A DNA stretch of 64,000 nucleotides from Escherichia phage vB_EcoM_EP32a. Positions 3,608-57,232 of the stretch are shown here, in pieces. The position numbers and the translations under genes were made by a program. Each line of letters starts with the position of its first letter. Within the stretch, counting starts at the first letter, position 1. The notes below the pieces were generated by a model. It saw only the letters and a list, made by a program, of their open reading frames with translations. It was not told the DNA's origin and ran no database searches. The stretch lies in sequence record OR544954, one strand, 5' to 3'.

Positions 3608-4429
3608 ATGAGCATATTCCAAATTATATCTGAAGGCGTACAAGCCCCTAAGATTGCTCAGTCTATGAATGAAAGAAAATGGATTGAGATAGGATTAGAA
3701 TACAAGAAAGCTAAAGAGAAAGGAATCACTGCAAAAGCATTTGCAGAATCAAAAGGAATAAAATACTCGTCGTTTACATCTGCAATGTCTAGATATGCAT
3801 CATCTATTAAGACTGCACAGAAAATTGAAACGCTTGAATCTAAACCTAAAAATAAACTCAATAAGCAAGAACGTCAACTTCTGATGATAAACTCGTTTCG
3901 CAGTTCAATACGAGAAAAGATTAGAAATGAAGGCGCAGCAGTAAACAACAAATCATCTAAGTGGTTTGTTGAAACAATTAAGAAAAGTGTAAAAGGTCAT
4001 AAAGTAGTCAAACCTACGCCAGGCAAAATTTATACTTACGTTTATGATGCTAAACATAAAGATACTCTGCCATACTGGGACCGATATCCTTTGATTATTT
4101 ATTTAGGATTAGGTAAACATAATTTGATGTATGGGTTAAACTTGCACTATATCCCACCTAAAGCGCGTCAACAGTTTCTTGAAGAATTGCTGAAGCAATA
4201 TGCTAGCACAACTACTATTACTAATAACACAAAGTTGAAAATAGACTGGAGTAAGGTGAAAGGATTTCAAGGTGCTGACAAAATGATTAAAGCATACTTG
4301 CCAGGCCACATTAGAGGAACAATAACAGAAATAGCTCCTAAAGACTGGGCTAACATAATCATGTTACCTACTCAGCAGTTTATGTCAAAAGGAAAACGTT
4401 TCTCTGCGAATACTGTTTGGAAATCTTAA
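3608..4429 (+). CDS. 2: DNA end protector protein gp2
   Basis: 273-aa ORF (T4 gp2 is 274 aa), conserved position between genes 4 and 3. Confidence 0.9.
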
Positions 4430-4531
4430 TTCTATTCTCTTCCGTTCGTCTGATATTCTATTGAACCGGATTAATGGAAGAGACCTAAAACCATTATACT
4501 GCATTTTTATTAAAGCGTTTTTGAGGTGCTT

Positions 4532-5116
4532 ATGACTCGTCCAGCGAGACAGATTTTTAACCAAACAAATATAACAAACTTTGTTGTGGATATCCCAGAT
4601 AGTACACGAACTTCAGGTTTTGTGCTCAATGCCCAAACGGCTCCATTGCCAGGTGTGAGAATTCCTGTTGTTGAAACTGTGACAGGCACAATGGGGCTAG
4701 GACGTGCAATGCGTGCAGGCACCACATTTGAATATGACCCTTTTATTGTACGATTTATAGTTGATGAAGACATGACGTCCTGGATGAACATGTATAAATG
4801 GATGCTCAGCACTAATAACTATATAACCGGCCATAATACAGCCCACTCTGATGGTCCTGAGTTTGTTACTTTGCACATTTTAAACAACAATAAGACCGAA
4901 GTAGTTTTGACGGCAAATTTCTATAAACCATGGATTTCTGATTTGAGTGAAATTGAATTTAGTTACACTGAAGACTCCGACCCTGCCGTTACGTGCGTAG
5001 CAACTATTCATTACGCTTATATGACGATAGAAAAAGATGGTGAAGTCATTGTATCTCAACAACCACGTCAAGCGGTCGAATCTAAATCCATTTCTAGACA
5101 CCCTTCCTTGCGTTAA
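4532..5116 (+). CDS. 3: tail completion / sheath stabiliser gp3
   Basis: ORF beginning MTRPARQIFNQTNITNFVVDIPDS...; ATG at 4532 preceded by GAGG. Confidence 0.85.
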   Translation: MTRPARQIFNQTNITNFVVDIPDSTRTSGFVLNAQTAPLPGVRIPVVETVTGTMGLGRAMRAGTTFEYDPFIVRFIVDEDMTSWMNMYKWMLSTNNYITGHNTAHSDGPEFVTLHILNNNKTEVVLTANFYKPWISDLSEIEFSYTEDSDPAVTCVATIHYAYMTIEKDGEVIVSQQPRQAVESKSISRHPSLR

Positions 5117-5143
5117 TCGCTTCTAGCTCCGTATGTTATAATC
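5117..5143 (+). promoter_or_regulatory. candidate middle promoter upstream of gene 1
   Basis: tcGCTTctA (MotA-box-like) followed 12 nt later by TATAAT, within an extended TGTTATAAT. Confidence 0.35.
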
Positions 5144-5169
5144 ACTCATAAATTATATGAGGAAAACCT

Positions 5170-5904
5170 ATGGAGCTAATCTTTTTAAGCGGCATCAAAC
5201 GTAGTGGTAAAGACACCACTGCTGATTACATCAATTCAAACTTTAAATCCGTAAAATATCAATTGGCATATCCAATTAAAGACGCTCTAGCAATAGCCTG
5301 GGGACGTAGGCATGCTGAAAATCCTGATGTATTCACAGAGTTGAAATACGAATACTTTGAAGGCATTGGATACGACCGTGAAACACCATTAAATCTCAAT
5401 AAGTTGGATGTTATTGAATTATTGGAAGAAGCGCTAATTTATTTGCAAAGCCAATATTTACCAATTAATAATGTTAAAGTATTATCATCGTTAGAAGGTG
5501 GATATTCGTATCTAGATATTAAACCATATGAAGCCCTGCGTGAAGCTATAAATAATATCAACGACACATGGTCAATCCGCCGTCTTATGCAAGCCCTCGG
5601 TACGGATGTTGTCGTTAATTTATTTGACCGTATGTATTGGGTTAAACTTTTTGCATTAAACTATATGGATTATATTGGAAGTGATTTCGATTACTATGTC
5701 GTAACCGATACACGTCAAGTCCATGAAATGGAAACCGCTAGAGCGATGGGTGCTACAGTTATTCATGTGGTTCGCTCTGGTACGGAATCCACCGATAAAC
5801 ATATTACAGAAGCTGGGTTGCCTATTGAAGAAGGCGATTTAGTTATTACAAACGACGGCTCTTTAGAAGAGCTTTATTCTAAAATTGAAACAATCTTAAG
5901 GTAA
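5170..5904 (+). CDS. 1: deoxynucleoside monophosphate kinase gp1
   Basis: P-loop FLSGIKRSGKDT; 244 aa (T4 gp1 is 241 aa); conserved synteny. Confidence 0.9.
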   Translation: MELIFLSGIKRSGKDTTADYINSNFKSVKYQLAYPIKDALAIAWGRRHAENPDVFTELKYEYFEGIGYDRETPLNLNKLDVIELLEEALIYLQSQYLPINNVKVLSSLEGGYSYLDIKPYEALREAINNINDTWSIRRLMQALGTDVVVNLFDRMYWVKLFALNYMDYIGSDFDYYVVTDTRQVHEMETARAMGATVIHVVRSGTESTDKHITEAGLPIEEGDLVITNDGSLEELYSKIETILR

Positions 5905-5908
5905 TAAA

Positions 5909-6594
<686 letters not shown>

Positions 6595-6607
6595 TTTTTA
6601 CAAAACA

Positions 6608-6637
6608 GTTTACATAAGGATGATGGTGTGTTACTAT
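6608..6637 (+). promoter_or_regulatory. early sigma70-type promoter (GTTTAC -35, TACTAT -10) within a palindrome
   Basis: GTTTAC at 6608-6613, -10 at 6632-6637, inverted repeat aggatgat...atcatcct around the -10. Confidence 0.5.
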
Positions 6638-6671
6638 CATCCTATCAAATAAACAGCCTCAAGGAAATAAA

Positions 6672-6959
6672 ATGAAAACCTATAAAGAATTTATATCACC
6701 TGTTGCTAACGTTTCTACTCTGACCGAAGCATCCCTTACTTCTGAAGTTATTAAAACAAATAAAGGACGTGAGGGTAAACCAATGATTAGTCTGGTTGAT
6801 GGTGAAGAAGTAAAAGGTACTGTTTACTTAGGGGATGGATGGTCTGCTAAGAAAGATGGCGCTACTATTGTTATCTCTCCGGCTGAAGAGACTGCACTGT
6901 TTAAAGCTAAGCATATTTCTGTAGCTCAGCTTAAAATTATTGCAAAAACTCTTCTGTAA
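6672..6959 (+). CDS. ipI: internal protein (ipI-like) with capsid targeting sequence
   Basis: N-terminal MKTYKEFI is the T4 CTS consensus; 95 aa, same as the T4 IPI precursor; T4 ipI position after 57B. Confidence 0.7.
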   Translation: MKTYKEFISPVANVSTLTEASLTSEVIKTNKGREGKPMISLVDGEEVKGTVYLGDGWSAKKDGATIVISPAEETALFKAKHISVAQLKIIAKTLL

Positions 6960-6963
6960 GTAG

Positions 6964-6992
6964 TTTACATGCTGATAGGACTATGTTATAGT
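6964..6992 (+). promoter_or_regulatory. early promoter cassette (GTTTAC ... TGTTATAGT) with palindrome around the -10
   Basis: GTTTAC 6964-6969, 17-nt spacer, TATAGT 6987-6992, flanked by ataggacta / tagtcctat. Confidence 0.55.
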
Positions 6993-7029
6993 AGTCCTAT
7001 CAAATCAAATGAGTAAATGGAGAAATAAA

Positions 7030-7215
7030 ATGAAACGCGCTGAACTGATTCGTAATGTTGCTGTAGTAATTGCTTCAATGGCTTTTAGTTTTTCGATGTT
7101 TGTAGGATTCATTTGTGGACTACTGACAACAACTGAAAACTCTATCTCATTGGTAGTAGCATTTCTAATCGGCTTAATCGCTATCGTTATGGATAAAATT
7201 GCAAAAGGTGAGTAA
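7030..7215 (+). CDS. small membrane protein
   Basis: ATG after GGAG SD; hydrophobic segments VAVVIASMAFSFSMFVGFICGLL and VVAFLIGLIAIV. Confidence 0.5.
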   Translation: MKRAELIRNVAVVIASMAFSFSMFVGFICGLLTTTENSISLVVAFLIGLIAIVMDKIAKGE

Positions 7216-33852: not shown

Positions 33853-34326
33853 ATGTTATTATCTGGCAAATTATACAAAGAAGAAAAACAAAAATTTTAT
33901 GATGCACAGAATGGTAAGTGTCCTATTTGCCACCGTGAATTAGACCCTGATGTTCAAGGTAACCATCTTGACCACGACCACGAATTAAACGGGCCAAAAG
34001 CAGGTAGAGTTCGTGGGTTACTCTGTAATCTGTGCAACGCAGCAGAAGGCCAAATGAAGCATAAGTTCAACCGTTCCGGTCTTAAAGGACGTGATGTCGA
34101 CTACCTCGAATGGCTTGAAGCTCTTCTTGCTTATTTGAAACAAGATTATTCTGATAATAATATCCATCCTAATTTTGTTCCAGACAAAACTAAAGAGTTC
34201 TCAAGACTAGGTAAAGAGGAAATGATGACTGAGATGCTTCAAAGAGGATTTGAATATAATGAATCTGATACCAAAACACAATTAATAGCTTCATTCAAAA
34301 AGCAGCTTAGAAAGAGTTTAAAATGA
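33853..34326 (+). CDS. 49: recombination endonuclease VII (Holliday junction resolvase) gp49
   Basis: MLLSGKLYKEEKQKFYDAQNGKCPICHRELDPD...HLDHDHELNGPKAG; 157 aa as in T4. Confidence 0.95.
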   Translation: MLLSGKLYKEEKQKFYDAQNGKCPICHRELDPDVQGNHLDHDHELNGPKAGRVRGLLCNLCNAAEGQMKHKFNRSGLKGRDVDYLEWLEALLAYLKQDYSDNNIHPNFVPDKTKEFSRLGKEEMMTEMLQRGFEYNESDTKTQLIASFKKQLRKSLK

Positions 34327-36140
34327 AAATTGAAAAAGAAATTGAAGGATTAATTCATAAAACTAATAAAGATCTTTTGAACGAGAATGCTAATAAAGAT
34401 TCTCGTGTTTTTCCAACTCAACGGGACCTTATGGCTGGTATTGTGTCTAAGCACATTGCCAAAAATATGGTCCCGTCTTTTATTATGAAAGCACATGAAA
34501 GCGGAATTATCCATTTCCATGATATTGATTATTCCCCTGCTCTTCCATTTACTAATTGCTGTTTAGTAGATTTAAAAGGAATGCTTGAAAACGGGTTTAA
34601 GCTAGGTAATGCTCAAATTGAAACGCCTAAATCGATTGGTGTTGCTACTGCAATTATGGCACAAATTACCGCACAGGTTGCTTCACATCAGTACGGCGGA
34701 ACGACTTTTGCTAATGTAGATAAAGTACTTTCTCCTTATGTTAAACGCACCTATGCAAAACATATTGAGGATGCAGAAAAATGGCAAATTGCTGATGCGT
34801 TGAATTATGCCCAATCTAAAACAGAAAAAGACGTATACGATGCATTTCAAGCTTATGAGTATGAAGTAAATACTCTTTTTAGCTCAAACGGTCAAACGCC
34901 TTTTGTAACAATTACATTTGGTACTGGAACTGACTGGACTGAACGAATTATTCAGAAAGCAATTCTGAAAAATCGTATTAAAGGTCTTGGTCGTGATGGA
35001 ATAACTCCTATTTTCCCTAAACTTGTTATGTTCGTTGAAGAAGGTGTTAATCTTTATAAAGACGATCCGAACTATGATATTAAGCAGCTTGCGTTAGAAT
35101 GTGCAAGCAAAAGAATGTATCCTGATATTATTTCGGTTAAGAACAATAAAGCTATCACTGGTTCATCTATTCCTGTTTCTCCAATGGGTTGTCGTAGTTT
35201 CTTGAGTGTATGGAAAGATTCGACTGGAAATGAAATTCTTGATGGACGTAATAATCTTGGTGTTGTAACACTGAATCTTCCTCGTATTGCGTTAGATTCT
35301 TATATTGGAACACAATTCAATGAACAGAAATTTGTTGAGCTATTTAATGAACGAATGGATCTGTGTTTTGAAGCCTTGATGTGTAGAATTAGTTCTTTAA
35401 AGGGTGTTAAAGCAACTGTTGCTCCTATTCTTTACCAAGAAGGTGCATTCGGGGTTCGTCTTAAACCTGATGACGATATAATTGAGTTATTTAAAACCGG
35501 TAGAAGTTCAGTGTCCTTAGGATACATTGGTATTCACGAATTGAATATTCTTGTCGGTCGTGATATTGGACAAGAAATTTTAACTAAAATGAATGCTCAT
35601 CTTAAGCAGTGGACTGAAAGAACCGGTTTTGCTTTTAGCTTGTATTCTACTCCTGCTGAAAACCTGTGCTATCGCTTCTGTAAACTTGATACCGAGAAAT
35701 ATGGAAGTGTAAAAGATGTTACTGATAAAGGCTGGTACACTAATAGTTTCCATGTTTCAGTAGAAGAAAATATCACTCCGTTTGAAAAGATTTCTCGCGA
35801 AGCCCCATATCATTTCATTGCGACTGGCGGACATATTTCTTATGTTGAACTTCCAGATATGAAAAACAATTTAAAGGGTCTTGAGGCTGTATGGGATTAT
35901 GCTGCACAACATTTAGATTATTTTGGTGTTAATATGCCAGTAGATAAATGTTTTACATGTGGAAGTACTCATGAAATGACTCCTACTGAAACCGGATTTG
36001 TTTGTTCTATTTGTGGAGAAACTGACCCTAAAAAGATGAACACCATAAGAAGAACATGCGGTTATCTTGGAAATCCTAACGAACGCGGATTTAATCTCGG
36101 CAAAAATAAAGAAATCATGCATAGGGTTAAACACCAATGA
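34323..36140 (+). CDS. nrdD: anaerobic ribonucleoside-triphosphate reductase NrdD
   Basis: 605 aa as in T4 NrdD; C-terminal glycyl-radical region and Cys cluster CFTCGSTHEM...CSICGE; no intron. Confidence 0.9.
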   Translation: MKIEKEIEGLIHKTNKDLLNENANKDSRVFPTQRDLMAGIVSKHIAKNMVPSFIMKAHESGIIHFHDIDYSPALPFTNCCLVDLKGMLENGFKLGNAQIETPKSIGVATAIMAQITAQVASHQYGGTTFANVDKVLSPYVKRTYAKHIEDAEKWQIADALNYAQSKTEKDVYDAFQAYEYEVNTLFSSNGQTPFVTITFGTGTDWTERIIQKAILKNRIKGLGRDGITPIFPKLVMFVEEGVNLYKDDPNYDIKQLALECASKRMYPDIISVKNNKAITGSSIPVSPMGCRSFLSVWKDSTGNEILDGRNNLGVVTLNLPRIALDSYIGTQFNEQKFVELFNERMDLCFEALMCRISSLKGVKATVAPILYQEGAFGVRLKPDDDIIELFKTGRSSVSLGYIGIHELNILVGRDIGQEILTKMNAHLKQWTERTGFAFSLYSTPAENLCYRFCKLDTEKYGSVKDVTDKGWYTNSFHVSVEENITPFEKISREAPYHFIATGGHISYVELPDMKNNLKGLEAVWDYAAQHLDYFGVNMPVDKCFTCGSTHEMTPTETGFVCSICGETDPKKMNTIRRTCGYLGNPNERGFNLGKNKEIMHRVKHQ

Positions 36141-36607
36141 ATTATGATAGATTTTATCCTTGCGATTTTGTGAATGGCCCTGGTTGCAGGGTCGTTCTTT
36201 TCGTTACAGGTTGTTTGCATAAATGCGAAGGGTGTTATAATAAATCAACATGGAACGCTAGAAATGGTATTCCATTCACGGGTGAAACACTAGAGCAATT
36301 AATTGAATGTTTGAATAATGATTATATAGAAGGATTAACTATAACTGGAGGAGACCCTCTCTATCCCGATAACAGAGATGTTGTTCATTGCATTGCTCAA
36401 ACAGTAAAAAATCTTTATCCCAATAAAAGCATTTGGTTGTGGACAGGATATAAGTTTGAAGATATTAAACAACTAGAAATGCTTAAATATGTTGATGTTA
36501 TTATTGATGGGAAGTATGAGAAAAATCTTCCGACCAAAAAACTGTGGCGAGGATCAGATAATCAGCGACTTTGGTCAAATACCGATGGGGTGTGGAAACA
36601 TGATTAA
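36137..36607 (+). CDS. nrdG: anaerobic RNR activating enzyme NrdG (radical SAM)
   Basis: GCRVVLFVTGCLHKCEGCYN (CxxxCxxC); ATGA overlap with nrdD. Confidence 0.9.
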   Translation: MNYDRFYPCDFVNGPGCRVVLFVTGCLHKCEGCYNKSTWNARNGIPFTGETLEQLIECLNNDYIEGLTITGGDPLYPDNRDVVHCIAQTVKNLYPNKSIWLWTGYKFEDIKQLEMLKYVDVIIDGKYEKNLPTKKLWRGSDNQRLWSNTDGVWKHD

Positions 36608-47927: not shown

Positions 47928-50639
47928 ATGAAAGAATTTTACTTAACGGTTGAACAGATTGGTGATTCAATTTTTGAACGTTACATCGATTCTAATGGCC
48001 GTGAACGTACTCGTGAAGTAGAATATAAACCATCGCTGTTTGCTCATTGTCCAGAAAGTCAGGCTACGAAATATTTCGATATCTACGGTAAGCCGTGTAC
48101 TCGTAAGTTGTTCGCTAATATGCGTGATGCCTCCCAATGGATTAAACGCATGGAAGATATCGGACTTGAAGCACTTGGCATGGACGATTTCAAATTGGCG
48201 TATTTGTCTGACACTTATAACTATGAAATCAAATACGACCATACAAAAATTCGTGTGGCTAACTTCGACATCGAAGTAACATCTCCGGACGGGTTCCCTG
48301 AGCCGTCACAAGCAAAACATCCTATTGATGCTATCACCCATTATGACTCAATTGACGACAGGTTCTACGTATTTGATCTATTGAATTCTCCATATGGTAA
48401 TGTGGAAGAATGGTCTATCGAAATTGCAGCTAAGCTTCAAGAACAAGGTGGTGATGAAGTTCCATCCGAAATTATCGACAAAATCGTTTATATGCCGTTT
48501 GATAATGAAAAAGAATTATTGATGGAATATCTCAACTTCTGGCAACAGAAAACTCCTGTCATTTTGACTGGATGGAACGTTGAGTCATTTGATATTCCAT
48601 ATGTGTATAACCGAATCAAGAATATTTTTGGCGAATCTACTGCGAAACGTTTATCACCACATCGTAAAACTCGCGTTAAAGTTATCGAAAACATGTATGG
48701 TTCTCGTGAAATCATTACATTGTTCGGTATCTCTGTTCTTGATTACATTGACCTTTACAAAAAATTCTCTTTTACTAATCAACCGTCGTATTCTCTGGAT
48801 TACATTTCAGAATTTGAATTGAACGTTGGTAAACTGAAATATGACGGCCCTATTTCTAAGCTTCGTGAAAGCAATCACCAACGATATATTTCTTATAACA
48901 TTATCGACGTGTATCGTGTATTGCAAATTGATGCTAAGCGTCAGTTCATCAACTTGAGTTTGGACATGGGTTATTATGCTAAGATACAGATTCAATCTGT
49001 GTTTAGCCCAATTAAAACATGGGATGCTATTATTTTTAATAGCCTTAAAGAGCAGAACAAGGTGATTCCACAAGGTCGTTCTCACCCGGTTCAACCTTAT
49101 CCTGGCGCTTTTGTTAAGGAACCTATTCCAAATCGATACAAATATGTAATGAGTTTCGACCTTACATCTCTGTATCCAAGTATTATTCGCCAAGTGAATA
49201 TTAGCCCAGAAACAATAGCAGGAACGTTTAAAGTAGCTCCATTGCATGATTATATTAACGCTGTTGCTGAACGTCCTTCTGATGTGTACAGTTGCTCTCC
49301 TAACGGCATGATGTATTATAAAGACCGTGATGGTGTAGTTCCAACTGAAATCACTAAAGTCTTTAATCAACGTAAAGAACATAAAGGTTATATGCTTGCG
49401 GCTCAACGTAATGGTGAAATAATTAAAGAGGCGTTGCATAATCCTAATCTTTCTGTTGACGAACCATTAGATGTTGATTATCGTTTCGACTTTAGCGATG
49501 AGATTAAAGAAAAGATTAAAAAGTTGTCTGCTAAATCTCTTAATGAAATGTTGTTTAGAGCTCAACGTACTGAAGTTGCAGGTATGACTGCCCAAATTAA
49601 CCGTAAATTGCTTATCAACTCACTTTATGGTGCACTTGGCAACGTTTGGTTCCGTTATTACGATTTGCGTAATGCTACTGCAATCACAACATTTGGTCAA
49701 ATGGCTTTACAGTGGATTGAACGTAAAGTTAATGAATATCTGAATGAAGTTTGTGGCACAGAAGGTGAAGCTTTCGTTCTTTATGGTGATACAGACTCTA
49801 TTTACGTATCTGCTGATAAAATTATCGATAAGGTTGGTGAATCTAAATTCCGTGATACCAACCATTGGGTAGACTTCTTAGATAAGTTTGCACGTGAACG
49901 TATGGAACCAGCTATTGATAGAGGTTTCCGTGAAATGTGTGAATACATGAACAATAAACAACACTTAATGTTCATGGACCGAGAAGCTATCGCTGGTCCT
50001 CCGCTTGGTTCTAAAGGTATTGGTGGATTCTGGACTGGCAAGAAACGTTATGCATTAAACGTGTGGGATATGGAAGGCACTCGTTACGCTGAGCCTAAAC
50101 TCAAAATCATGGGTCTCGAGACTCAGAAATCTTCGACTCCTAAAGCAGTACAGAAAGCTCTTAAAGAATGTATTCGTCGTATGCTTCAAGAAGGTGAAGA
50201 ATCATTACAAGAATATTTTAAAGAGTTTGAAAAAGAATTCCGTCAATTGAATTATATTAGCATCGCGTCGGTATCTTCTGCGAATAACATTGCTAAATAT
50301 GACGTAGGTGGATTCCCTGGTCCCAAATGCCCGTTCCATATTCGTGGAATTCTGACGTATAACCGGGCTATCAAAGGTAATATTGATGCTCCACAAGTTG
50401 TAGAAGGTGAAAAAGTATATGTTCTGCCTTTACGTGATGGAAACCCATTCGGTGATAAATGTATCGCATGGCCTTCTGGTACTGAAATCACAGATTTAAT
50501 TAAAGACGACGTACTTCATTGGATGGACTACACTGTTCTCCTTGAGAAGACATTTATTAAACCACTTGAAGGATTCACATCAGCAGCGAAACTCGATTAC
50601 GAGAAGAAAGCATCTCTGTTCGATATGTTCGATTTTTGA
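47928..50639 (+). CDS. 43: DNA polymerase gp43 (family B)
   Basis: 903 aa; exonuclease motifs FDIEV, YNIIDV; polymerase motifs DLTSLYPSII, KLLINSLYGALG, YGDTDS; long stretches match the RB69 gp43 sequence as I recall it. Confidence 0.97.
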   Translation: MKEFYLTVEQIGDSIFERYIDSNGRERTREVEYKPSLFAHCPESQATKYFDIYGKPCTRKLFANMRDASQWIKRMEDIGLEALGMDDFKLAYLSDTYNYEIKYDHTKIRVANFDIEVTSPDGFPEPSQAKHPIDAITHYDSIDDRFYVFDLLNSPYGNVEEWSIEIAAKLQEQGGDEVPSEIIDKIVYMPFDNEKELLMEYLNFWQQKTPVILTGWNVESFDIPYVYNRIKNIFGESTAKRLSPHRKTRVKVIENMYGSREIITLFGISVLDYIDLYKKFSFTNQPSYSLDYISEFELNVGKLKYDGPISKLRESNHQRYISYNIIDVYRVLQIDAKRQFINLSLDMGYYAKIQIQSVFSPIKTWDAIIFNSLKEQNKVIPQGRSHPVQPYPGAFVKEPIPNRYKYVMSFDLTSLYPSIIRQVNISPETIAGTFKVAPLHDYINAVAERPSDVYSCSPNGMMYYKDRDGVVPTEITKVFNQRKEHKGYMLAAQRNGEIIKEALHNPNLSVDEPLDVDYRFDFSDEIKEKIKKLSAKSLNEMLFRAQRTEVAGMTAQINRKLLINSLYGALGNVWFRYYDLRNATAITTFGQMALQWIERKVNEYLNEVCGTEGEAFVLYGDTDSIYVSADKIIDKVGESKFRDTNHWVDFLDKFARERMEPAIDRGFREMCEYMNNKQHLMFMDREAIAGPPLGSKGIGGFWTGKKRYALNVWDMEGTRYAEPKLKIMGLETQKSSTPKAVQKALKECIRRMLQEGEESLQEYFKEFEKEFRQLNYISIASVSSANNIAKYDVGGFPGPKCPFHIRGILTYNRAIKGNIDAPQVVEGEKVYVLPLRDGNPFGDKCIAWPSGTEITDLIKDDVLHWMDYTVLLEKTFIKPLEGFTSAAKLDYEKKASLFDMFDF

Positions 50640-50679: not shown

Positions 50680-51315
50680 ATGAAAACTACTCCTATTACT
50701 ATCGCTATTGACGCAATCATAAAACAAGCTTCTTCTTTGGCCGCTATGGCCAAAGTAATTAGTCAAAACCCTGCTCGTTATAATGCTATTCTAGAAACTC
50801 TTCGACGCCCTGGACTTAGTAATTATGAAAGCCGGGTAATTATTACAGGTGTTGGTAAGAATGCTAATATCGCAACTAAAGCTTCCGAGACTTTTGCTTC
50901 ACTAGGTATTCCTAGCATGTATTTGAACACCGGGCATTATTCTCATGGTGATGCAGGATTTATTGCGCCTAATGATGTGTTGATTCATATTAGTCGTTCT
51001 GGTAAAACTGAAGAAATGATAGGTGTTGCTAAACATCTTCGTATGATTCGTCCTCAGGTTAAACAGATTCTGTTACATTGTAACCCAGACATTCCACAAG
51101 AATACGAAGCTCTTTTTGATTATACGTTCTGTACCGGTATCGCGGTAGAAGTTGACGAGAACTCTTTGGCTCCGACTATGTCCACTACATTGTTGTTAGC
51201 GCTTATCGATACGTTTGCTATCAACCTTTCGTCTGAACGCGGATTTACCTCTAATGACTTCCTTAAGTTCCACCCTGGTGGTGCACTAGGTGCCATGTTA
51301 CGAGGCGAACAATGA
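50680..51315 (+). CDS. SIS-domain sugar phosphate isomerase, KdsD/GutQ-type arabinose-5-phosphate isomerase-like
   Basis: VIITGVGKNANIATKASETFASLGIP, HGDAGF, ISRSGKTEE, LAPTMSTT, RGFTSNDFLKFHPGGALG align with the KdsD SIS domain by eye; 211 aa, single SIS domain. Confidence 0.8.
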   Translation: MKTTPITIAIDAIIKQASSLAAMAKVISQNPARYNAILETLRRPGLSNYESRVIITGVGKNANIATKASETFASLGIPSMYLNTGHYSHGDAGFIAPNDVLIHISRSGKTEEMIGVAKHLRMIRPQVKQILLHCNPDIPQEYEALFDYTFCTGIAVEVDENSLAPTMSTTLLLALIDTFAINLSSERGFTSNDFLKFHPGGALGAMLRGEQ

Positions 51316-51496: not shown

Positions 51497-53182
51497 ATGA
51501 AAAAAGCTGTTATTCTTGGTGCTGGACTGGCAACTCGTTTGTATCCAATAACGCATCATATTCCTAAGGTGCTTGTTAACTATAAACAAGACACTATTCT
51601 GAGCAATTTGTATACAATTTATTCTGACCTTGGCGCAGATGAAATTATTGTAGTAGTTCATTCAAAATTTGCTGAAACCGTTCGAGCTTATTGTGAGCAA
51701 GAAGGGTTCAATGTGACTATTCGTACAGTTGATGAAGCGTATGGTTCTGCTTATGCTCTTGCTAAATTATACAAAGATTTAGATGGCCATAACGTAATTG
51801 TTAACTGGTGTGATATTATTCCTGATTTTGGTTCATGGTCTTGGAATGTTAACGCAATCTATGTTAAGGGTGATGAATGTCGATATAATTTCGACGGTGA
51901 AAATATCACTAACGTAGGTTCAACGGGTGGTAATGTTGTAGGAATTTACCAGTTCAAAGACTGGGAATTCTATATGGGTTCTACTGATGAGGAAATTCAT
52001 GAATACTGCAAAGGACGTGATTTCGTAGAATTCCTTTACGGGAGTGCATTCAATAAATCAGAGCTTATGAATCTAATTGATTTAGGTGATATGCCTAAAC
52101 TTGAAAAAGCTCATGAAGTTCGTGAACTTAATCGTAGTTTTAATGCAGTTGAAATTGGTGAAGAAACTGTAACTAAATTCGCATTAACCGAACAGGGTCG
52201 AGCTCTTCAGAAAGATGAGATTTCATGGTATCTTAAAGTGAAATCAGATTCAGTTCCTCAGTTAGTTTCTGTTAATGAAAATAACTTTGAAATGGAACGC
52301 ATTAAAGGTAAGCCGGCATTTGAATATATTAAATCCAAATCAAGTCTTGCTCGTCCACAAATTGTTGATGCAATTTTAGATGCACTGAAATTCAGCACAG
52401 ACACTTATTTTGTAAGTCCTGAAACTGTTCGTCGTGATTTCACTAAAGAATTCTATACGAAAGTTATTGATCGTTGTGAAAGCATTCAGCCATTGATTGA
52501 TTCATTTGGTAAAATCACACATGTGAACTACACTAAGATTGGACGTCTGAAGCCAATGCTGAAACAAGCTTTAGAACACCTTATTCGTTATCATAACCGT
52601 TCTCAGGGACAGTACTCTGTTATTCACGGTGACCCGAACTTCAGTAATACTATGATTACTGATAATGGCGAAGTCAAGTTTATCGACCCTCGTGGATATT
52701 TTGGTGAAACCAAGATTTACGGGCCAAAATTGTATGACGAAGCTAAAGTGCTTTATGCTGTTTCAGGTTATGATGAATTCAATGCTAATCCAACCTGGGG
52801 ACAGTTTACTATTGATGAAACAACTTGTAATGTGACTATTAACATCAATCCATTAGTTTACAAATATGGAAAGATGAGTTCGTTTAACGAGTATCATCAT
52901 TTGGCAGTGGCAATTATCTGGATTGCATTAGGTGGTTATTTCAAGAATAATCCACTTAAAGCGGTAGCCGCATATTATAAAGGTATGGAACTTCTGACTA
53001 AGCAATTACGTAACATGGGCCGTGTACTTCAGGACGGCTCTATTAGTTATGACGTAGCAGAACCTGTAACGGCTACTCTGATTACAAAAAATCCTGGTAA
53101 ATGGGTACTAACTGATAAAGAAACTGGTGTTTCCTATCGTCCAATCGGTGGCGATATCACTCATCAATGGGAACGAATCTAA
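51497..53182 (+). CDS. bifunctional sugar-1-phosphate nucleotidyltransferase (N-terminal) / APH-ChoK-fold kinase (C-terminal)
   Basis: N-terminus AVILGAGLATRLYPITHHIPKVLV (G-x-G-x-x-R, LicC/MurU-like); C-terminus VIHGDPNFSNTMITDNGEVKFIDPRG (HGDxxxxN catalytic loop plus D of the APH/choline-kinase fold); 561 aa. Confidence 0.75.
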   Translation: MKKAVILGAGLATRLYPITHHIPKVLVNYKQDTILSNLYTIYSDLGADEIIVVVHSKFAETVRAYCEQEGFNVTIRTVDEAYGSAYALAKLYKDLDGHNVIVNWCDIIPDFGSWSWNVNAIYVKGDECRYNFDGENITNVGSTGGNVVGIYQFKDWEFYMGSTDEEIHEYCKGRDFVEFLYGSAFNKSELMNLIDLGDMPKLEKAHEVRELNRSFNAVEIGEETVTKFALTEQGRALQKDEISWYLKVKSDSVPQLVSVNENNFEMERIKGKPAFEYIKSKSSLARPQIVDAILDALKFSTDTYFVSPETVRRDFTKEFYTKVIDRCESIQPLIDSFGKITHVNYTKIGRLKPMLKQALEHLIRYHNRSQGQYSVIHGDPNFSNTMITDNGEVKFIDPRGYFGETKIYGPKLYDEAKVLYAVSGYDEFNANPTWGQFTIDETTCNVTININPLVYKYGKMSSFNEYHHLAVAIIWIALGGYFKNNPLKAVAAYYKGMELLTKQLRNMGRVLQDGSISYDVAEPVTATLITKNPGKWVLTDKETGVSYRPIGGDITHQWERI

Positions 53183-53568
53183 TGCACCGTGTAGAAAACA
53201 TGCTTAATCTTTGTTTTGATGTCGACGATTGTATAACAGAGTGGAATAACAATCGTGATTACGTGAACTTCAAGCCAGACGTCGAAATGGTGACTGCCAT
53301 TAATGCCCTGTATGATGCAGGGCATACCATAACGCTTTACACTGCTCGTGGTATGAAGTCAGTAGGTCCTGGACGTATAGCAATTGATATTCTCCCAAGT
53401 CTGATTCAGAACTTGGCAAACATTGGCTTGAAGTACCATAATTTGCTAACACATAAACCAGTATATGATTGGATTATCGACGACAAAGCTATGCGTCCTG
53501 ACGAATTCAAAGCTCTTATGAATAAAGGCGAATTCGAAACATTTAAATCGTATAAACCGAATCTATAA
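53182..53568 (+). CDS. HAD-superfamily phosphatase-like protein
   Basis: Motif I-like FDVDDCIT, motif II ITLYTARG, motif III/IV HKPVYDWIIDDKA; start taken at the ATG overlapping the upstream stop. Confidence 0.55.
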   Translation: MHRVENMLNLCFDVDDCITEWNNNRDYVNFKPDVEMVTAINALYDAGHTITLYTARGMKSVGPGRIAIDILPSLIQNLANIGLKYHNLLTHKPVYDWIIDDKAMRPDEFKALMNKGEFETFKSYKPNL

Positions 53569-53628
53569 TAATTTAAGTAAGACCTGCAAAAAAAAACCAT
53601 CGCGTCAATTAACGTGAGATGCAAAAAA

Positions 53629-54789
53629 ATGAATACTTTTAAAATCGGAACGAATTTTGATTTAGCTCTTCTTGATAAAATCGTAGAGCTCAATAAAACT
53701 TATCCTAATAGCTTGATAAACGAAGTATACGGCTCTACAAGAGAAATGGCTTTTGTAGCAGCCAGACCTGATTTTAGGCTTCCTGACGTTGACAAAAAGA
53801 TGTTAGAAGATTACGTTAAACGTTGTAACGAATTAGGTATTTGCTTTAACTATACACTCAACACGATAAATCCTGGTTCAAAAAGAGAACTAGTTGAGTG
53901 GAAGAAGAAAGCTATTCAGGATTATGTTCAGTATCTTTGGTCAATAGGCGTATGGCGTATTACTATCGCTAACCCTGTTGTTATGGAAATTGTTCGTGAA
54001 GTCAATAAAGACATTGAGATTGAAGTTTCAACAATTCTACATGTCGATGCTGTAACTCAAATAAAATACTTACATGACCAATACAATATCAAAAAGGTCT
54101 GCTGTGGAATTCATAAGAACCGTTCAGTTTCTTTCCTGAAGCGTGCAGCAGAGTTTTGCAATAAGAACAATATAATATTTGAAGTTCTTGTAAATGAGTT
54201 CTGTTCTAATGCTGGTAAAGGGTATACAACACATTGTAGCTATCGTGACTCTTGCTATATTTTCCATAGTACTGATGTTACAGCTGATGATGCTAAATCC
54301 TTAAACGGGTATCCTATGCAGCACTGTATTAAAGCTCGTGATACAGACCCATTTAACTGGTTGAGAACTCGTTTTGTTCGTCCTCAAGATTTGAAACTTT
54401 ATAATGATATTGGTATCACTCAATTCAAAGTTTCAGGACGTACAGGTAGCACAGACTACATTTTGAAAGTTCTTGAAGCATACGCTTCTGAAAAGTTTGA
54501 AGGTAATTTGTTAGAACTGTGGAAGCCTTTAGAGACTATTTTCACTCTTGAAAACGAAACTGAGTTTTCACATACAGTAAATATTGAAACCTCTTTGTTA
54601 GATGGCTTTTTAGAAAAAAGGTGGTTCAGACATCCAGATTTCGATTGTGCTAATGAAATCTGCGGGACGACGTGTACATATTGTGAAAGATATTATAAAC
54701 GTCAATTATCTAAAAACGGGTTAGCAGAAAACTCTATATCTATTATTGATATAACTAACTCTGATGACGCTTTGAGGTACCCGGAATGA
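53629..54789 (+). CDS. hypothetical Cys-cluster protein (possibly peptidase-U32-like)
   Basis: 386 aa; NEFCSNAGKGYTTHCSYRDSC resembles the U32 signature E-x-F-x2-G-[SA]-h-C-x4-G-x-C; C-terminal C-x4-C-x3-C-x2-C; assignment tentative. Confidence 0.45.
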   Translation: MNTFKIGTNFDLALLDKIVELNKTYPNSLINEVYGSTREMAFVAARPDFRLPDVDKKMLEDYVKRCNELGICFNYTLNTINPGSKRELVEWKKKAIQDYVQYLWSIGVWRITIANPVVMEIVREVNKDIEIEVSTILHVDAVTQIKYLHDQYNIKKVCCGIHKNRSVSFLKRAAEFCNKNNIIFEVLVNEFCSNAGKGYTTHCSYRDSCYIFHSTDVTADDAKSLNGYPMQHCIKARDTDPFNWLRTRFVRPQDLKLYNDIGITQFKVSGRTGSTDYILKVLEAYASEKFEGNLLELWKPLETIFTLENETEFSHTVNIETSLLDGFLEKRWFRHPDFDCANEICGTTCTYCERYYKRQLSKNGLAENSISIIDITNSDDALRYPE

Positions 54790-55025
54790 TTTCTAGAAAA
54801 ACTTTTAATCACCGACTTAATGAAGAGATTTTGACTACGAAACTGAACACTAACGAACAAATTCTTAAAAAGGCCCTGATGGGCCTGTTTGAAATTAAAG
54901 CGGCTAAAGTGATTAAAGAACCTGTTCAATTGGAATACTACGCTGATGCATTTCTTCATAGTGTTCTTGGAAGTATCGATGCTGAAGCTTTACGTTATAT
55001 CAACATTGTCAAGAAATTCAAATAA
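54786..55025 (+). CDS. hypothetical protein
   Basis: 79-aa ORF ATGA-coupled to the preceding gene; not membrane-like, so unlikely to be Imm. Confidence 0.4.
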   Translation: MISRKTFNHRLNEEILTTKLNTNEQILKKALMGLFEIKAAKVIKEPVQLEYYADAFLHSVLGSIDAEALRYINIVKKFK

Positions 55026-55066: not shown

Positions 55067-55783
55067 ATGGGAAAACATAACACAATGAAATATATCAAAG
55101 CCGCAGATTTTCAAACCGCATTTAAAGCAGTCAATCGTGAAATTTTAGAAAACCCGGAATTCGTAACTGATTCTCGTATTGGACGTTGTAATGAAATTGG
55201 GTCTATGACAGTAGTTGTTGACACTCCATCATCATTCAAAATGACAGACCCACGTATTAACCGCATCTCTTATGAATATGCCGAAGACTTCTGGAAGTTT
55301 ATGATTTCTGGTGGTACCAACGCAGAAGAAGCGTTTAAGGCATATCCTAATGTCGCTAAATTTATTTCTAAACCAAAATCAGATGTTTTGCCGGCGAACT
55401 TCAACACTTTCTATGGTCCTCGCATTGCGGCCCAGCTACCGGCTCTTCTAAAAGAACTTAAAGAGAAGCCTAACTCTCGAAGAGTTGTGTTCCAAATTCT
55501 AGAAAGTTCTGATCAGGCTTTGCTTGATTCGGACGAAACGCTTGAATATCCATGTACTGACTCAGTGACTTATTATATTCGTGATGGTAAGCTTTATACC
55601 CACTGTCATATGCGTTCCCAGAACTGTGCTGTTGTTATGCAGTTGGATTTTTATCTCCAAGGAAAATTACTTCATTATATCGCTAACGAATGTGGTGTAG
55701 AAGTTGGTGATTATACTCATACCATGGTAAGTGCCCATGTGTTTGAACGTGATTTTGATTATGTTAAAGGATTCCTTGACTAA
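55067..55783 (+). CDS. 42: dCMP hydroxymethylase gp42 (thymidylate-synthase fold)
   Basis: NSRRVVFQI, YPCTDSVTYYIRDGKLYTHCHMRSQN, VSAHVFERDF correspond to T4 gp42 motifs (DSRRG, CTNTVQYLIRD, SLHVYSRHF); 238 aa. Confidence 0.8.
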   Translation: MGKHNTMKYIKAADFQTAFKAVNREILENPEFVTDSRIGRCNEIGSMTVVVDTPSSFKMTDPRINRISYEYAEDFWKFMISGGTNAEEAFKAYPNVAKFISKPKSDVLPANFNTFYGPRIAAQLPALLKELKEKPNSRRVVFQILESSDQALLDSDETLEYPCTDSVTYYIRDGKLYTHCHMRSQNCAVVMQLDFYLQGKLLHYIANECGVEVGDYTHTMVSAHVFERDFDYVKGFLD

Positions 55784-56682
55784 TGGCTATTTTCCGCGTA
55801 CCTATCTTGAGTATGCGGTCTTATGAAACTGGACAGTATGCTATCCTTAAGGATGGCAACTTCCAACTTCATTTGCACCGTGCTAATCCAGGTGATGTGA
55901 TTACATATCCACGTAATGCATCTGATATTAAAGAATGCGAACGTCTTTTTCCGGAATTTAAGTTTGTTCCATTATGGTATAAAGATAACGCGTATAACAC
56001 TCGTAAATATTTCTGGTCTGAAAATGAATTTGTGGTTGATTCATTAATTGCTTATTATGATTGTGATTTTCTAATCACAGATATCACCGGATATGATGGC
56101 GCTTTTGACGTAGAATTCAATTTCAATATCACTGCAGACCCTAATAAACCACGTTTTTATATTGATGAATTCTTAAAAACCGACATGTTGTCTGTTAATC
56201 GTTCACTTCAAACTACTGTGTTGAATGAACGTCAAAAAGAAGTGCTGGTTAACGCAGGTGCAGATGGTAATAAGATTATCGTAACACAGAAAGTTATACG
56301 TCCTTCCGTCATGCAGCGTCTTGTAGGTGATTTGGCTCCTATTCATCTAGATGGTATTTTTCATCCATTTCGAATTAGTGACCCATGCTATCGTTTTGAA
56401 CAAGTGGTTGAATGCGCAATTCAATTAGGTCAACCGCTTTATATAACTGATCCAAATAATAGTTTCGACAGAAATAAGTATCCTGAAGAAGCGCTGATTC
56501 GAATTTTTAATCCAACTAAAACTGAGTACTATCAAATTCTTAAAGGACGTCCGAAGATTCAATATTTCGAAAATCCTGAAGAAGTATTCCATCCAGGTCT
56601 TGGTGAGTTCATCTACTTTAATGCTTTAATTTCTTCACCGTATAATATACCTAAATACGAAGATGTCGTAATCGAGGAATAA
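55783..56682 (+). CDS. hypothetical protein in the beta-glucosyltransferase slot (candidate hmC-DNA glycosyltransferase)
   Basis: 299-aa ORF ATGG-coupled to gene 42, between 42 and uvsX where T4 has beta-gt; no similarity to T4 beta-gt by eye; function from position only. Confidence 0.45.
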   Translation: MAIFRVPILSMRSYETGQYAILKDGNFQLHLHRANPGDVITYPRNASDIKECERLFPEFKFVPLWYKDNAYNTRKYFWSENEFVVDSLIAYYDCDFLITDITGYDGAFDVEFNFNITADPNKPRFYIDEFLKTDMLSVNRSLQTTVLNERQKEVLVNAGADGNKIIVTQKVIRPSVMQRLVGDLAPIHLDGIFHPFRISDPCYRFEQVVECAIQLGQPLYITDPNNSFDRNKYPEEALIRIFNPTKTEYYQILKGRPKIQYFENPEEVFHPGLGEFIYFNALISSPYNIPKYEDVVIEE

Positions 56683-56683
56683 A

Positions 56684-57232
56684 ATGGCTAAAATTATTTT
56701 AGTAGACGGGCCTGATAATGCTGGTAAAACAACTTTCATTAATGACATAATGGAAATTAGTGAAAGATATGTAAAGATTGATTTCCCTAAACGAACAGTT
56801 GATGGGCGTTTCGATGTTAAGTCTCGAAATGAAGTTGGCTGTTTCGAAACGATGTTGAATTATTTAGACCCTACTAAGATTTATCTATTAGACCGTGGAT
56901 ATATTAGTAACTGGGTTTATGGACGTATTCGACAAGATGCGGACTCGGTTCTTGACGTTTATGAACAGGATTATGTTCGTCTTTGCCAAAACCATGATGT
57001 GTTCACAATTATTTTAACCCGTAACGAAATGACTGAAAGTTTTGAAGACGACCTTATTACTTTGTCTTCATTCGGTTTTAATACAGTCATTTCACATTTT
57101 GAAGAGTTTGCAATTCATAACAAAATCCAAACGTATCAATTACTTAATCATGATGGTTCTAACAAAGTTATAGGATTTAATGCAAGTGAACGTAATAATT
57201 TGATTACAGAAATCATTAAATGGGCTCGTTAA
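56684..57232 (+). CDS. P-loop kinase, thymidylate-kinase/dNK-like fold
   Basis: IILVDGPDNAGKTTFIND, LLDRGYISNWVYG (DR motif); 182 aa; separate from gene 1. Confidence 0.55.
   Translation: MAKIILVDGPDNAGKTTFINDIMEISERYVKIDFPKRTVDGRFDVKSRNEVGCFETMLNYLDPTKIYLLDRGYISNWVYGRIRQDADSVLDVYEQDYVRLCQNHDVFTIILTRNEMTESFEDDLITLSSFGFNTVISHFEEFAIHNKIQTYQLLNHDGSNKVIGFNASERNNLITEIIKWAR

Follow-up and report, generated by a model that had tools for sequence, protein, structure and literature searches.

A 64,000-nucleotide stretch of DNA from Escherichia phage vB_EcoM_EP32a (sequence record OR544954; hereafter the window), a T4-type phage of the genus Mosigvirus, carries a gene for a 386-amino-acid (aa) protein of the U32 family, the homolog of gp50 of phage RB69, in the midst of genes that make and glycosylate 5-hydroxycytosine in DNA (Table 1). 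With moderate confidence, it is proposed here that the gene product is a prephenate-dependent, O2-independent C5-hydroxylase of cytosine nucleotides, which would provide a second route to 5-hydroxydeoxycytidine monophosphate (5-hydroxy-dCMP). The gene, its annotation as a peptidase and its membership of the U32 family are already known; a role was found in print only as a label in Table 1 of the RB69 study, where gp50 is named a 'sugar or heterocycle reductase' with a match to structure 5d88 and is never discussed (Lee et al., NAR 2026, PMC13326640). GenBank and RefSeq label the gene 'peptidase family U32', and 'peptidase' and 'collagenase-like protease' are also used.

A single open reading frame (ORF) ends at 54789, and its longest version opens at a GTG codon at 53614. 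Since all homologs begin with MNTFK, the N-terminus obtained from the ATG at 53629 (MNTFKIG...), the start was placed at that ATG, as in the initial annotation. Over the 1161 bp, DNA identity is 99.7% to Escherichia phage NRG-P0074 and 99.6% to APCEc01, and the protein is 99.5% identical to its RB69 counterpart. The gene is under strong purifying selection: comparison with another Mosigvirus allele gave a nonsynonymous rate (pN) of 0 and a synonymous rate (pS) of 0.046, and comparisons with other genera gave dN values of 0.09-0.14 with dS saturated.

The initial annotation had tentatively compared the protein with the U32 family, and a Pfam search bore this out. Peptidase_U32 (PF01136) scored 42.2 bits (gathering threshold 22.4; E 7.3e-11), with aa 94-286 matching profile positions 2-192 of 233, and was the sole Pfam domain detected; in PHROGs, the full length of the protein matched phrog_5757 ('peptidase'). 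An AlphaFold2 model with 34 homologs as input reached a predicted local distance difference test score (pLDDT) of 91.3 and a predicted template modelling score (pTM) of 0.90. Its best Foldseek match in the PDB was the U32 protein Mk0906 (5d88; E 5.3e-8, target-normalised template modelling score 0.69), the same structure named for RB69 gp50 (PMC13326640), and the remaining matches were generic TIM barrels, with flavin and folate reductases among the lower ones. Judged from this model, the protein is a U32-type TIM barrel. Sequence searches of the PDB, with the single protein or with a 34-sequence profile, returned chance-level matches only and no U32 structure, and the only NCBIfam match was the UbiU equivalog NF047963 at 18.5 bits, far below its cut-off of 440; the phage protein therefore belongs to a divergent branch of the family. 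A hidden Markov model (HMM) scan of 1.84 billion representative proteins retrieved 466 clusters (50% identity) at E <= 1e-30 and 1672 at E <= 1e-3, which delineate by their sequences a compact, distinct U32 subfamily of mostly single-domain proteins of roughly 330-480 aa (typically ~360).

Among the four U32 paralogs of E. coli K-12, each aligned to the subfamily profile with hhalign, RlhA matched best (probability 80%, E 1.4e-5, 203 aligned columns), followed by TrhP (9%), UbiU (5%) and UbiV (0.4%); pairwise identity between the phage protein and RlhA is ~19%. In both the hhalign and the MAFFT alignment, C203 and C209 of the phage protein align with C169 and C176 of RlhA, and a conserved glutamate (E185 or E190, according to the alignment used) lines up with E161. 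Mutagenesis found this glutamate and the two cysteines to be essential in RlhA (E161, C169, C176) and in TrhP (E162, C170, C177) (PMC5727448, PMC6599085). The 34 close homologs of the phage protein show little or no variation at E185/E190, C203 and C209. Canonical U32 proteins also share the F-K-V-S-G-R-T-G motif, whose counterparts are FKIEGRYK in RlhA, LKIEGRTK in TrhP and VKIEGRQR in UbiU; its K267 and R271 are each kept in 125 of 125 remote representatives of the subfamily. The PROSITE-type signature of the family, which we take to be E-x-F-x2-G-[SA]-[LIVM]-C-x4-G-x-C-x-[LIVM]-S, matches RlhA (161), TrhP (162) and UbiU (161) exactly, and the pattern was accepted as valid for that reason; it matches neither the phage protein nor UbiV. 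The phage region, which includes residues 189-209 (NEFCSNAGKGYTTHCSYRDSC), contains an insertion and has C-x5-C in place of C-x6-C, and it is still the homologous segment in both alignments. The resemblance to the U32 signature claimed in the initial annotation thus holds as homology and fails as an exact pattern match.

Nine cysteines (C158, C192, C203, C209, C233, C340, C345, C349 and C352) are invariant in the 34 homologs, which extend down to 47% identity. C233 is present in all 125 remote representatives, C192 in 124 of them and the four C-terminal cysteines in 97-110. The latter form the C-x4-C-x3-C-x2-C cluster at residues 340-352 (CANEICGTTCTYC; the CGTTCTYC part is located at 54661), which had been noticed at the outset and is a probable second metal or iron-sulfur (Fe-S) site, so that the expectation of a metalloprotein is upheld as a prediction from conserved cysteines. 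The positions of RlhA C192 and C196 are gapped in the phage protein (MAFFT alignment), and in place of this second canonical pair stand the subfamily-specific C192 and C233 together with the C-terminal cluster; it is plausible from this pattern that Fe-S binding occurs through ligands other than the canonical ones. The cluster also contains a radical S-adenosylmethionine (SAM)-like spacing (C345-x3-C349-x-Y-C352, resembling CxxxCxφC). A radical SAM identity was rejected, as no Pfam Radical_SAM match was obtained at E <= 0.01 and the motif lies at the extreme C-terminus, preceded by a fourth invariant cysteine.

The surrounding genes correspond to a pathway described in RB69, whose DNA contains mono- and di-arabinosylated 5-hydroxycytosine and not arabinosyl-hydroxymethylcytosine (PMC13326640). 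There, the ThyA-like enzyme gp48 binds flavin and installs the 5-hydroxyl at the mononucleotide level, with the oxygen coming from O2 as determined by 18O2 labelling (PMC13326640); a gp48-type reaction has been confirmed in vitro by He et al. 2026, as cited in that paper. The sugar branch runs from ribulose 5-phosphate to arabinose 5-phosphate, arabinose 1,5-bisphosphate, arabinose 1-phosphate and UDP-arabinofuranose, and is fully assigned to gp55, gp52:53 and gp51 (PMC13326640). RB69 also encodes a dCTPase and replaces cytosine completely, and Acinetobacter phage DLP3 makes tri-arabinosyl-5-hydroxycytosine from a cluster lacking a U32 gene (PMC13326640). The RB69 modification is thus fully explained without the U32 gene, leaving no extra chemistry that would require it (PMC13326640). 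RNA hydroxylation of the RlhA/TrhP type is mentioned in the same study as unrelated to the ThyA-like enzyme, and no connection to gp50 is made (PMC13326640).

By its gene context, the U32 gene is a functional member of this DNA-modification module, as the initial annotation supposed. The next enzyme gene downstream, ~280 bp away and 98-100% identical to its Mosigvirus homologs, had been taken for gene 42; it does adjoin the U32 gene as part of the module, but it corresponds to the flavin/O2 5-hydroxy-dCMP synthase and not to a dCMP hydroxymethylase (PMC13326640). A promoter and terminator scan of the 50.5-57.4 kb region gave a site count no higher than in shuffled sequence. In the window, the AfhE-like gene (561 aa) and the glycosyltransferase gene (299 aa) are single intact ORFs, which is consistent with the report that the split ORFs 52/53 and 46/47 of the RB69 reference are sequencing errors (PMC13326640).

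Table 1. Features of the U32 gene, its neighbors and the glycyl-radical genes of the window
Feature	Position	Strand	Basis or remark
GrcA/YfiD (T4 Y06I)-type autonomous glycyl-radical protein, 120 aa	19203-19565	+	Gly_radical 67.3 bits; RVSGY
Class III ribonucleotide reductase NrdD	34323-36140	+	Pfam NRDD 567.6 bits; glycyl-radical motif RRTCGY
Radical-SAM activase NrdG	36137-36607	+	Fer4_12 163 bits; CLHKCEGC
DNA polymerase gp43	47928-50639	+	
SIS-domain arabinose-5-phosphate isomerase (RB69 gp55)	50680..51315	+	Pfam SIS 39.8 bits; PMC13326640
Bifunctional nucleotidyltransferase/kinase (RB69 gp52:53 / AfhE analog), UDP-arabinose pathway	51497..53182	+	Pfam NTP_transferase and weak kinase-type matches; PMC13326640
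HAD-like phosphatase (RB69 gp51 / AfhF analog), UDP-arabinose pathway	53167..53568	+	Synteny; no Pfam match; PMC13326640
U32-family protein, 386 aa	53629..54789	+	1161 bp; homolog of RB69 ORF050 / NP_861740 (gp50)
U32-motif region, aa 185-213 (E185...NE190F-C192-x10-C203-x5-C209-YIFH213)	54181..54267	+	Homologous to RlhA/TrhP/UbiU signature EFFIHGALCVAYSGQCYIS
Codon of C233, subfamily-specific invariant Cys	54325..54327	+	Replaces CxxxC pair of RlhA/TrhP
F-K-V-S-G-R-T-G motif, aa 266-273	54424..54447	+	Common to canonical U32 proteins (MAFFT alignment)
C-terminal cluster C340-x4-C345-x3-C349-x2-C352	54646..54684	+	Invariant in 34 homologs
79-aa ORF, phrog_8601	54786..55025	+	Start overlaps U32 stop (ATGA); no cysteines
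ThyA-like 5-hydroxy-dCMP synthase (RB69 gp48 homolog; flavin/O2 route)	55067..55783	+	Pfam Thymidylat_synt 56.9 bits
Glycosyltransferase (RB69 gp46:47 homolog, arabinosyltransferase 1)	55783..56682	+	Synteny, clustering; PMC13326640 Table 1
P-loop nucleotide-kinase-like protein (RB69 gp45 homolog)	56684..57232	+	HMM; PMC13326640 Table 1
UvsX	from 57331	+	

Across phages, the U32 gene is coupled genomically to chorismate mutase or 3-deoxy-D-arabino-heptulosonate-7-phosphate (DAHP) synthase, to glycosyltransferases and to nucleotide kinases. Prephenate is the product of chorismate mutase. In Enterobacter phage Entb_45 (Kanagawavirus) and Serratia phage LC53 (Winklervirus), as in other sister genera, a chorismate mutase gene (CM_2, 40.9 and 44.6 bits, respectively, with a gathering threshold of 27) lies between the U32 and ThyA-like genes. 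In a collection of 50,697 isolated-phage records, tblastn located chorismate mutase in 54, from phages of Klebsiella, Serratia, Yersinia, Enterobacter, Proteus, Erwinia, Edwardsiella, Providencia, Pectobacterium, Morganella, Kosakonia and Shewanella as well as Escherichia phage EcS1. A fused query of U32 and chorismate mutase, with the pieces joined as neighbors, returned the same 221 records as U32 alone; no phage in the collection therefore carries this chorismate mutase without the U32 gene. Dhakavirus Bp7 and Pseudomonas phage PspYZU05 possess the ThyA-like cluster and have neither a U32 gene nor a chorismate mutase. Marfavirus-like Klebsiella phages (Marfa, Potts1, EI, Clarke_MM3 and others; L010) have a rearranged cluster in the order AfhE-HAD-kinase-U32-ThyA-like-glycosyltransferase, with a U32 gene of ~89% identity; like Mosigvirus they have no chorismate mutase, and their locus contains no SIS isomerase.

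The 79-aa ORF that follows the U32 gene adjoins the slot that holds chorismate mutase in sister genera. The possibility that it is a degenerate chorismate mutase was rejected, because both genes stand next to each other in Yersinia phage TG1 and Pectobacterium phage PM2; in addition, the ORF gave no CM_2 match and an hhalign probability of 0.4% against a profile of the phage chorismate mutases. This ORF evolves much faster than the U32 gene, with mostly 86-96% aa identity among Mosigviruses, and some Mosigvirus alleles are truncated or matched in two pieces. Its N-terminal motif M-x-INHKLNEEL recurs at the N-terminus of the 114-aa chorismate mutase of LC53 (L008:5660-6004). The arrangement suggests an ancestral order U32-orf79-chorismate mutase-ThyA that would have undergone fusion or deletion across genera, with chorismate mutase lost in Mosigvirus and Marfavirus.

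A scan of IMG/VR and GTDB added 57 loci to those already collected from context and isolate data, and 60 loci in all were tabulated, 17 of them Straboviridae-type and 43 divergent (40-58% identity, 31 lineages); for each locus, ORFs were called and clustered and HMMs of the cluster genes were applied. The ThyA-like gene was present in 17 of 17 Straboviridae-type loci and in one of the 43 divergent loci, where it was a canonical thymidylate synthase (244 bits), and no homolog of the 5-hydroxy-dCMP synthase was found within ±10 kb of the U32 gene in the 43 divergent loci. The other cluster genes were retained to varying degrees: the P-loop nucleotide-kinase-like gene (17/17 Straboviridae-type, 28/43 divergent), the glycosyltransferase family of the window (17/17, 27/43), the AfhE-like gene (17/17, 18/43), chorismate mutase (15/17, 14/43) and SIS isomerase (13/17, 10/43). 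DAHP synthase was absent from all 17 Straboviridae-type loci and present in six of the 43 divergent loci, mostly as fusions of DAHP synthase with chorismate mutase (125 + 65 bits). In six lineages, a minimal kinase-glycosyltransferase-U32 module without sugar-activation genes stands beside a replicative polymerase. A Pfam census of the five nearest neighbors per lineage, covering all 31, was headed by thymidylate kinase (9), methyltransferases (6), DNA polymerase III alpha (5), DAHP synthase (5) and CM_2 (5), followed by guanylate kinase (4), SIS (4), dUTPase families, deoxynucleoside kinase and dCMP deaminase. Because the kinase and glycosyltransferase are neighbors and the ThyA-like gene is missing nearby, the U32 gene appears to hold the slot occupied by gp42-type enzymes in T-even phages. 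Beside a kinase that would phosphorylate the modified nucleotide and a transferase that would glycosylate it, the U32 protein of the divergent phages would be the maker of the hydroxyl handle, to judge from gene content, and it is probably the sole hydroxylase in phages of anaerobes.

Several of the divergent loci have gene arrangements of interest in their own right. Fusions of DAHP synthase with chorismate mutase lie next to the U32 gene at L037:7317-8357, L034:8411-9433, L038:8353-9387 and L048:11100-12197, and separate genes at L023:9384-10130 (DAHP synthase only) and L040:11113-11436 (chorismate mutase only); the contigs concerned are large uncultured viral ones, 49-200 kb where the size is known. 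As auxiliary metabolic genes, phage genes for the entry step of the shikimate pathway and for making prephenate appear not to have been described before. In L065, a 423-aa guanylate-kinase::SAM-methyltransferase fusion, a 267-aa protein without a Pfam match and the U32 gene follow one another (3990-5261 / 5249-6052 / 6049-7125), a layout repeated in L062, L063 and L064; the four are labelled Phocaeicola faecalis, Tannerella, BRC1 and Woesearchaeota. The fusion layout suggests a path from 5-hydroxy to 5-methoxy pyrimidine nucleotides. An 86-kb ENA scaffold (L002:7135-17428) harbors a nucleoside/nucleotide island containing the U32 gene, a 5'(3')-deoxyribonucleotidase (NT5C), a PnuC-like transporter, a deoxynucleoside kinase, a radical SAM-SPASM protein, a second, weak U32-like protein (21.7 bits) and a nucleoside 2-deoxyribosyltransferase-like protein. 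The U32 protein of GTDB locus L057, from a Bacillota metagenome-assembled genome, is at least 90% identical to that of this scaffold, and the 466-kb contig L001 likewise has a radical SAM-SPASM gene close to its U32 gene. Lastly, a family of ~200-aa proteins without a Pfam match (f16) occurs in 18 loci (L032-L053; e.g. L043:17792-18394 and L037:8317-8955), often next to or near the U32 gene and in several divergent viral loci between the AfhE-like and U32 genes, which is the position of the HAD phosphatase in Straboviridae; on position, its members may be phosphatases of analogous function or partners of the U32 protein.

The distribution of the U32 gene was also compared with the oxygen relations of the hosts. 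The 221 isolate records with the gene are all at least 80% identical, and the host genera among the matches listed belong to the Enterobacterales or are Shewanella, all of them facultative anaerobes. No U32 match came from the 57 Acinetobacter and 20 Rhizobium phage records that have the ThyA-like gene, so that the gene is missing from these phages of strict aerobes. Ten GTDB loci are labelled Erysipelotrichales, Bacillota, Oscillospiraceae, Romboutsia (two), Tannerella, Phocaeicola faecalis, Planctomycetota, BRC1 and Woesearchaeota, so that the GTDB matches are mostly of anaerobe-type taxa (Oscillospiraceae, Romboutsia, Erysipelotrichales, Tannerella and Phocaeicola). A strict host-oxygen rule was rejected as an absolute, since the E. 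coli Dhakavirus Bp7 lacks the gene. The phage itself is equipped for oxygen-free replication, as the window carries NrdD, NrdG and a GrcA-like protein (Table 1). T4-type phages also have the aerobic reductase NrdAB.

On the proposed function, the U32 protein would be an Fe-S enzyme that hydroxylates C5 of a cytosine nucleotide, most likely converting dCMP to 5-hydroxy-dCMP, in the absence of O2 and with prephenate as the hydroxyl donor, as for RlhA, TrhP and UbiU/UbiV. It would act as the O2-independent partner of the neighboring flavin/O2 ThyA-like synthase, a pairing that would parallel TrhP/TrhO and UbiUV/UbiIHF of the host and the NrdDG reductase of the phage beside the NrdAB of T4-type phages. 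The 5-hydroxy-dCMP would then be phosphorylated, incorporated into DNA and arabinosylated. By analogy with UbiU/UbiV (PMC10990095), the ring would undergo a two-electron oxidation in which Fe-S centers pass electrons to an acceptor, and the decarboxylating aromatization of prephenate would deliver hydroxide and leave phenylpyruvate and CO2. It is a matter of speculation that two clusters, comparable to those in the two chains of the UbiU-UbiV heterodimer, could be bound within a single chain by C192/C203/C209/C233 and C340/C345/C349/C352. As the window has no chorismate mutase or DAHP synthase, prephenate in Mosigvirus would come from host PheA/TyrA. We infer Fe-S binding, the prephenate donor, the substrate, O2 independence and action on mononucleotides; the mononucleotide level is favored because of the RB69 dCTPase and full cytosine replacement, the free-nucleotide genes nearby and the lack of RNA-binding extensions. 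Extending the proposal to the whole, widespread phage subfamily, with this protein as its founding member, is a more evenly balanced matter: there is about an even chance that these proteins are prephenate-dependent, O2-independent C5-hydroxylases of deoxypyrimidine nucleotides, the first U32 enzymes acting on a free nucleotide and in DNA hypermodification, that they are the sole source of the 5-hydroxyl in phages of strict anaerobes, and that chorismate mutase and DAHP synthase supply their donor. If so, the 5-hydroxyl handle possibly serves methoxylation as well as glycosylation.

Several observations weigh against this interpretation. The canonical four-cysteine [4Fe-4S] motif (C-x6-C-x15-C-x3-C or the UbiU variant) is only half kept, and C203 and C209 are conserved in 74 and 78, respectively, of the 125 remote representatives (~60%); the cluster may therefore be held by ligands other than those used in RlhA, TrhP and UbiU. 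No chorismate mutase or DAHP synthase was detected in the window at E <= 10, and the prephenate link rests on relatives. The E. coli Dhakaviruses (Bp7) have the modification cluster without the U32 gene, which indicates that the gene is dispensable for modification and that host lifestyle is not a full predictor of its presence. The divergent loci were viewed within ±10 kb only, and the genomes concerned could encode a ThyA-like hydroxylase farther away. A search of the literature turned up no experiment on the phage U32 protein or on other subfamily members. More generally, no U32 hydroxylase has so far been reconstituted in vitro (PMC10990095), and the chemistry of the family is therefore itself inferred from genetics and isotope labelling. 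Finally, the protein sequence would be compatible with dCMP, another nucleotide or DNA as the substrate.

It is possible, although unlikely, that the protein is a U32 hydroxylase acting on a polymer, either on phage DNA after replication or on host or phage RNA (tRNA U34 or rRNA C2501-type sites). The characterized pyrimidine-hydroxylating members RlhA and TrhP act on RNA (PMC5727448, PMC6599085), RlhA is the best-matching paralog, and the linkage to chorismate mutase would fit a polymer substrate equally well. However, the 386-aa single-domain protein lacks the DUF3656 and C-terminal RNA-binding extensions of RlhA, and its neighbors across the 31 lineages (nucleotide kinases, dUTPase, dCMP deaminase, 5'-nucleotidase and deoxynucleoside kinase) belong to free-nucleotide metabolism. 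Given the dCTPase and the complete replacement of cytosine in RB69 (PMC13326640), there would be no cytosine-type deoxynucleoside triphosphate to polymerize unless hydroxylation preceded replication, and an RNA target would leave the linkage to a DNA glycosyltransferase unexplained.

A redox function is distinctly unlikely, whether in the arabinose branch (the 'sugar or heterocycle reductase', or sugar tailoring) or as an Fe-S partner that re-reduces the flavin of the ThyA-like enzyme. The U32 gene does sit between the UDP-arabinose genes and the hydroxylase gene, it frequently accompanies AfhE-like and SIS genes in the divergent loci, and the TIM-barrel fold draws flavin and folate reductases among the lower structural matches. 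Nevertheless, the path from ribulose 5-phosphate to UDP-arabinofuranose is complete without it, DLP3 makes poly-arabinosyl-5-hydroxycytosine in its absence, and the structure of the RB69 base solved by nuclear magnetic resonance and mass spectrometry reveals no additional sugar chemistry (PMC13326640). Several lineages with the kinase, glycosyltransferase and U32 genes have no sugar-activation genes, and within ±10 kb 42 of the 43 divergent loci have no ThyA-like partner. A redox role also offers no rationale for the linkage to chorismate mutase and DAHP synthase, and characterized U32 members are all tied to the hydroxylation of aromatic or heteroaromatic carbons (PMC10990095). The initial annotation had the protein tailoring the sugar or the base; the sugar half of this suggestion is contradicted by the same evidence, and the base half stands in modified form, as the protein would likely place the same 5-hydroxyl by an O2-independent route rather than add a further feature.

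That the protein is a collagenase-type U32 peptidase, or has a role unrelated to DNA modification, is highly improbable, and the initial annotation had likewise set a protease aside: the GenBank and RefSeq label and the reports of PrtC (P. gingivalis) and HP0169 (H. pylori) as collagenases, as cited in PMC5727448, are set against a family with no known catalytic mechanism for proteolysis (PMC5727448), a gene that is embedded, co-oriented and translationally coupled in a nucleotide/DNA-modification operon, its co-variation with chorismate mutase, glycosyltransferase and kinases across unrelated phages, and its absence from closely related hydroxymethylcytosine phages and from any isolated phage in the collection outside 5-hydroxycytosine-type clusters.

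The proposed prephenate-dependent hydroxylase would fill a gap in the understanding of these phages, which inhabit a largely anoxic gut and destroy dCTP, and whose path to 5-hydroxycytosine is so far explained only by an O2-consuming enzyme. If the proposal is correct, hypermodification in RB69-type phages would be independent of oxygen, which would explain how they keep modifying their DNA in the oxygen-free gut; the essentiality of the gene would depend on conditions, a point relevant to phage therapy and phage engineering. Prephenate-dependent U32 hydroxylation would extend from RNA and quinones to DNA precursors, and the phage-borne chorismate mutase and DAHP synthase genes would be suppliers of the oxygen-atom donor. 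Many uncultured phages that infect anaerobes probably have glycosylated 5-hydroxypyrimidine DNA whose making involves no thymidylate-synthase homolog. As U32 hydroxylases have yet to be reconstituted in vitro (PMC10990095), their mechanism could be worked out on this enzyme, which is small, consists of one chain and would have a simple, soluble substrate. A U32 prephenate-dependent hydroxylase in DNA-precursor synthesis was not found in the searchable papers, a scope outside which He 2026 and Mahler 2025 fall; a full-text search returned no paper uniting 'chorismate mutase', phage and hydroxycytosine, and no phage paper was among the matches listed for prephenate, U32 and hydroxylation together. 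A phage Tn-seq preprint gives nothing at the level of single genes for Bas46 or LC53.

The early pointer to Fe-S-dependent hydroxylases within the U32 family proved a productive lead, and comparison with known systems suggests a place for the phage protein among them. Its best structural match, Mk0906 of Methanopyrus kandleri, differs in that it shares 11% identity, covers the barrel only (247 aa) and lacks anything equivalent to the C-terminal cysteine cluster. RlhA (YdcP), the 23S rRNA 5-hydroxycytidine-2501 synthase, shares with the phage protein the U32 domain, the motif glutamate and two cysteines, and the proposed chemistry would be identical, namely C5-hydroxylation of cytosine. RlhA also requires the C-terminal cysteines C580 and C611 (PMC5727448), which recalls the conserved C-terminal cluster of the phage protein, and its genetic dependence on prephenate and Fe-S assembly (PMC5727448) finds a parallel in the chorismate mutase encoded by phages of sister genera. 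In contrast, RlhA is a 653-aa protein with DUF3656 that acts on ribosomal precursors and has the C192/C196 pair, C-x6-C and the exact signature, whereas the phage protein has C-x5-C and lacks the pair and the signature match; the substrate of RlhA is rRNA and that of the phage protein would be a deoxynucleotide. As the combination of U32 and DUF3656 occurs solely in RlhA's subfamily (PMC5727448), the phage protein is not an RlhA ortholog. UbiU-UbiV is a heterodimer with one [4Fe-4S] cluster in each subunit, while in the phage protein the two cysteine groups lie on one chain.

The gp48-type synthases (RB69 gp48, DLP3 gp80 and the HY126 homolog) occupy the same pathway position, with the same proposed product, 5-hydroxy-dCMP as the glycosylation acceptor. 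They differ in having a thymidylate-synthase fold, in using flavin and O2 and in having an experimentally proven function (PMC13326640); the phage U32 protein is a candidate with a predicted TIM barrel. The genetically characterized U32 hydroxylations, which yield 5-hydroxycytidine 2501 of 23S rRNA (RlhA), 5-hydroxyuridine 34 of tRNA (TrhP) and anaerobic ubiquinone (UbiU/UbiV), are O2-independent or indifferent to O2, Fe-S-dependent and prephenate-requiring (PMC5727448, PMC6599085, PMC10990095), and isotope labelling identified prephenate as the oxygen-atom donor in anaerobic ubiquinone synthesis (PMC10990095). In two of these systems, the same product is made by an O2-dependent hydroxylase (the rhodanese-type TrhO or the flavin enzymes UbiI/H/F) and by an O2-independent, prephenate-dependent U32 enzyme (TrhP or UbiU-UbiV), and facultative anaerobes thereby cover the whole range of O2 (PMC6599085, PMC10990095). 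The counterpart of the O2-dependent partners in the phage is the flavin/O2 ThyA-like enzyme. The redundancy is here proposed from genomic evidence, and what sets the phage pair apart from TrhP/TrhO and UbiUV/UbiIHF would be a new substrate class, a DNA precursor, and a viral setting.

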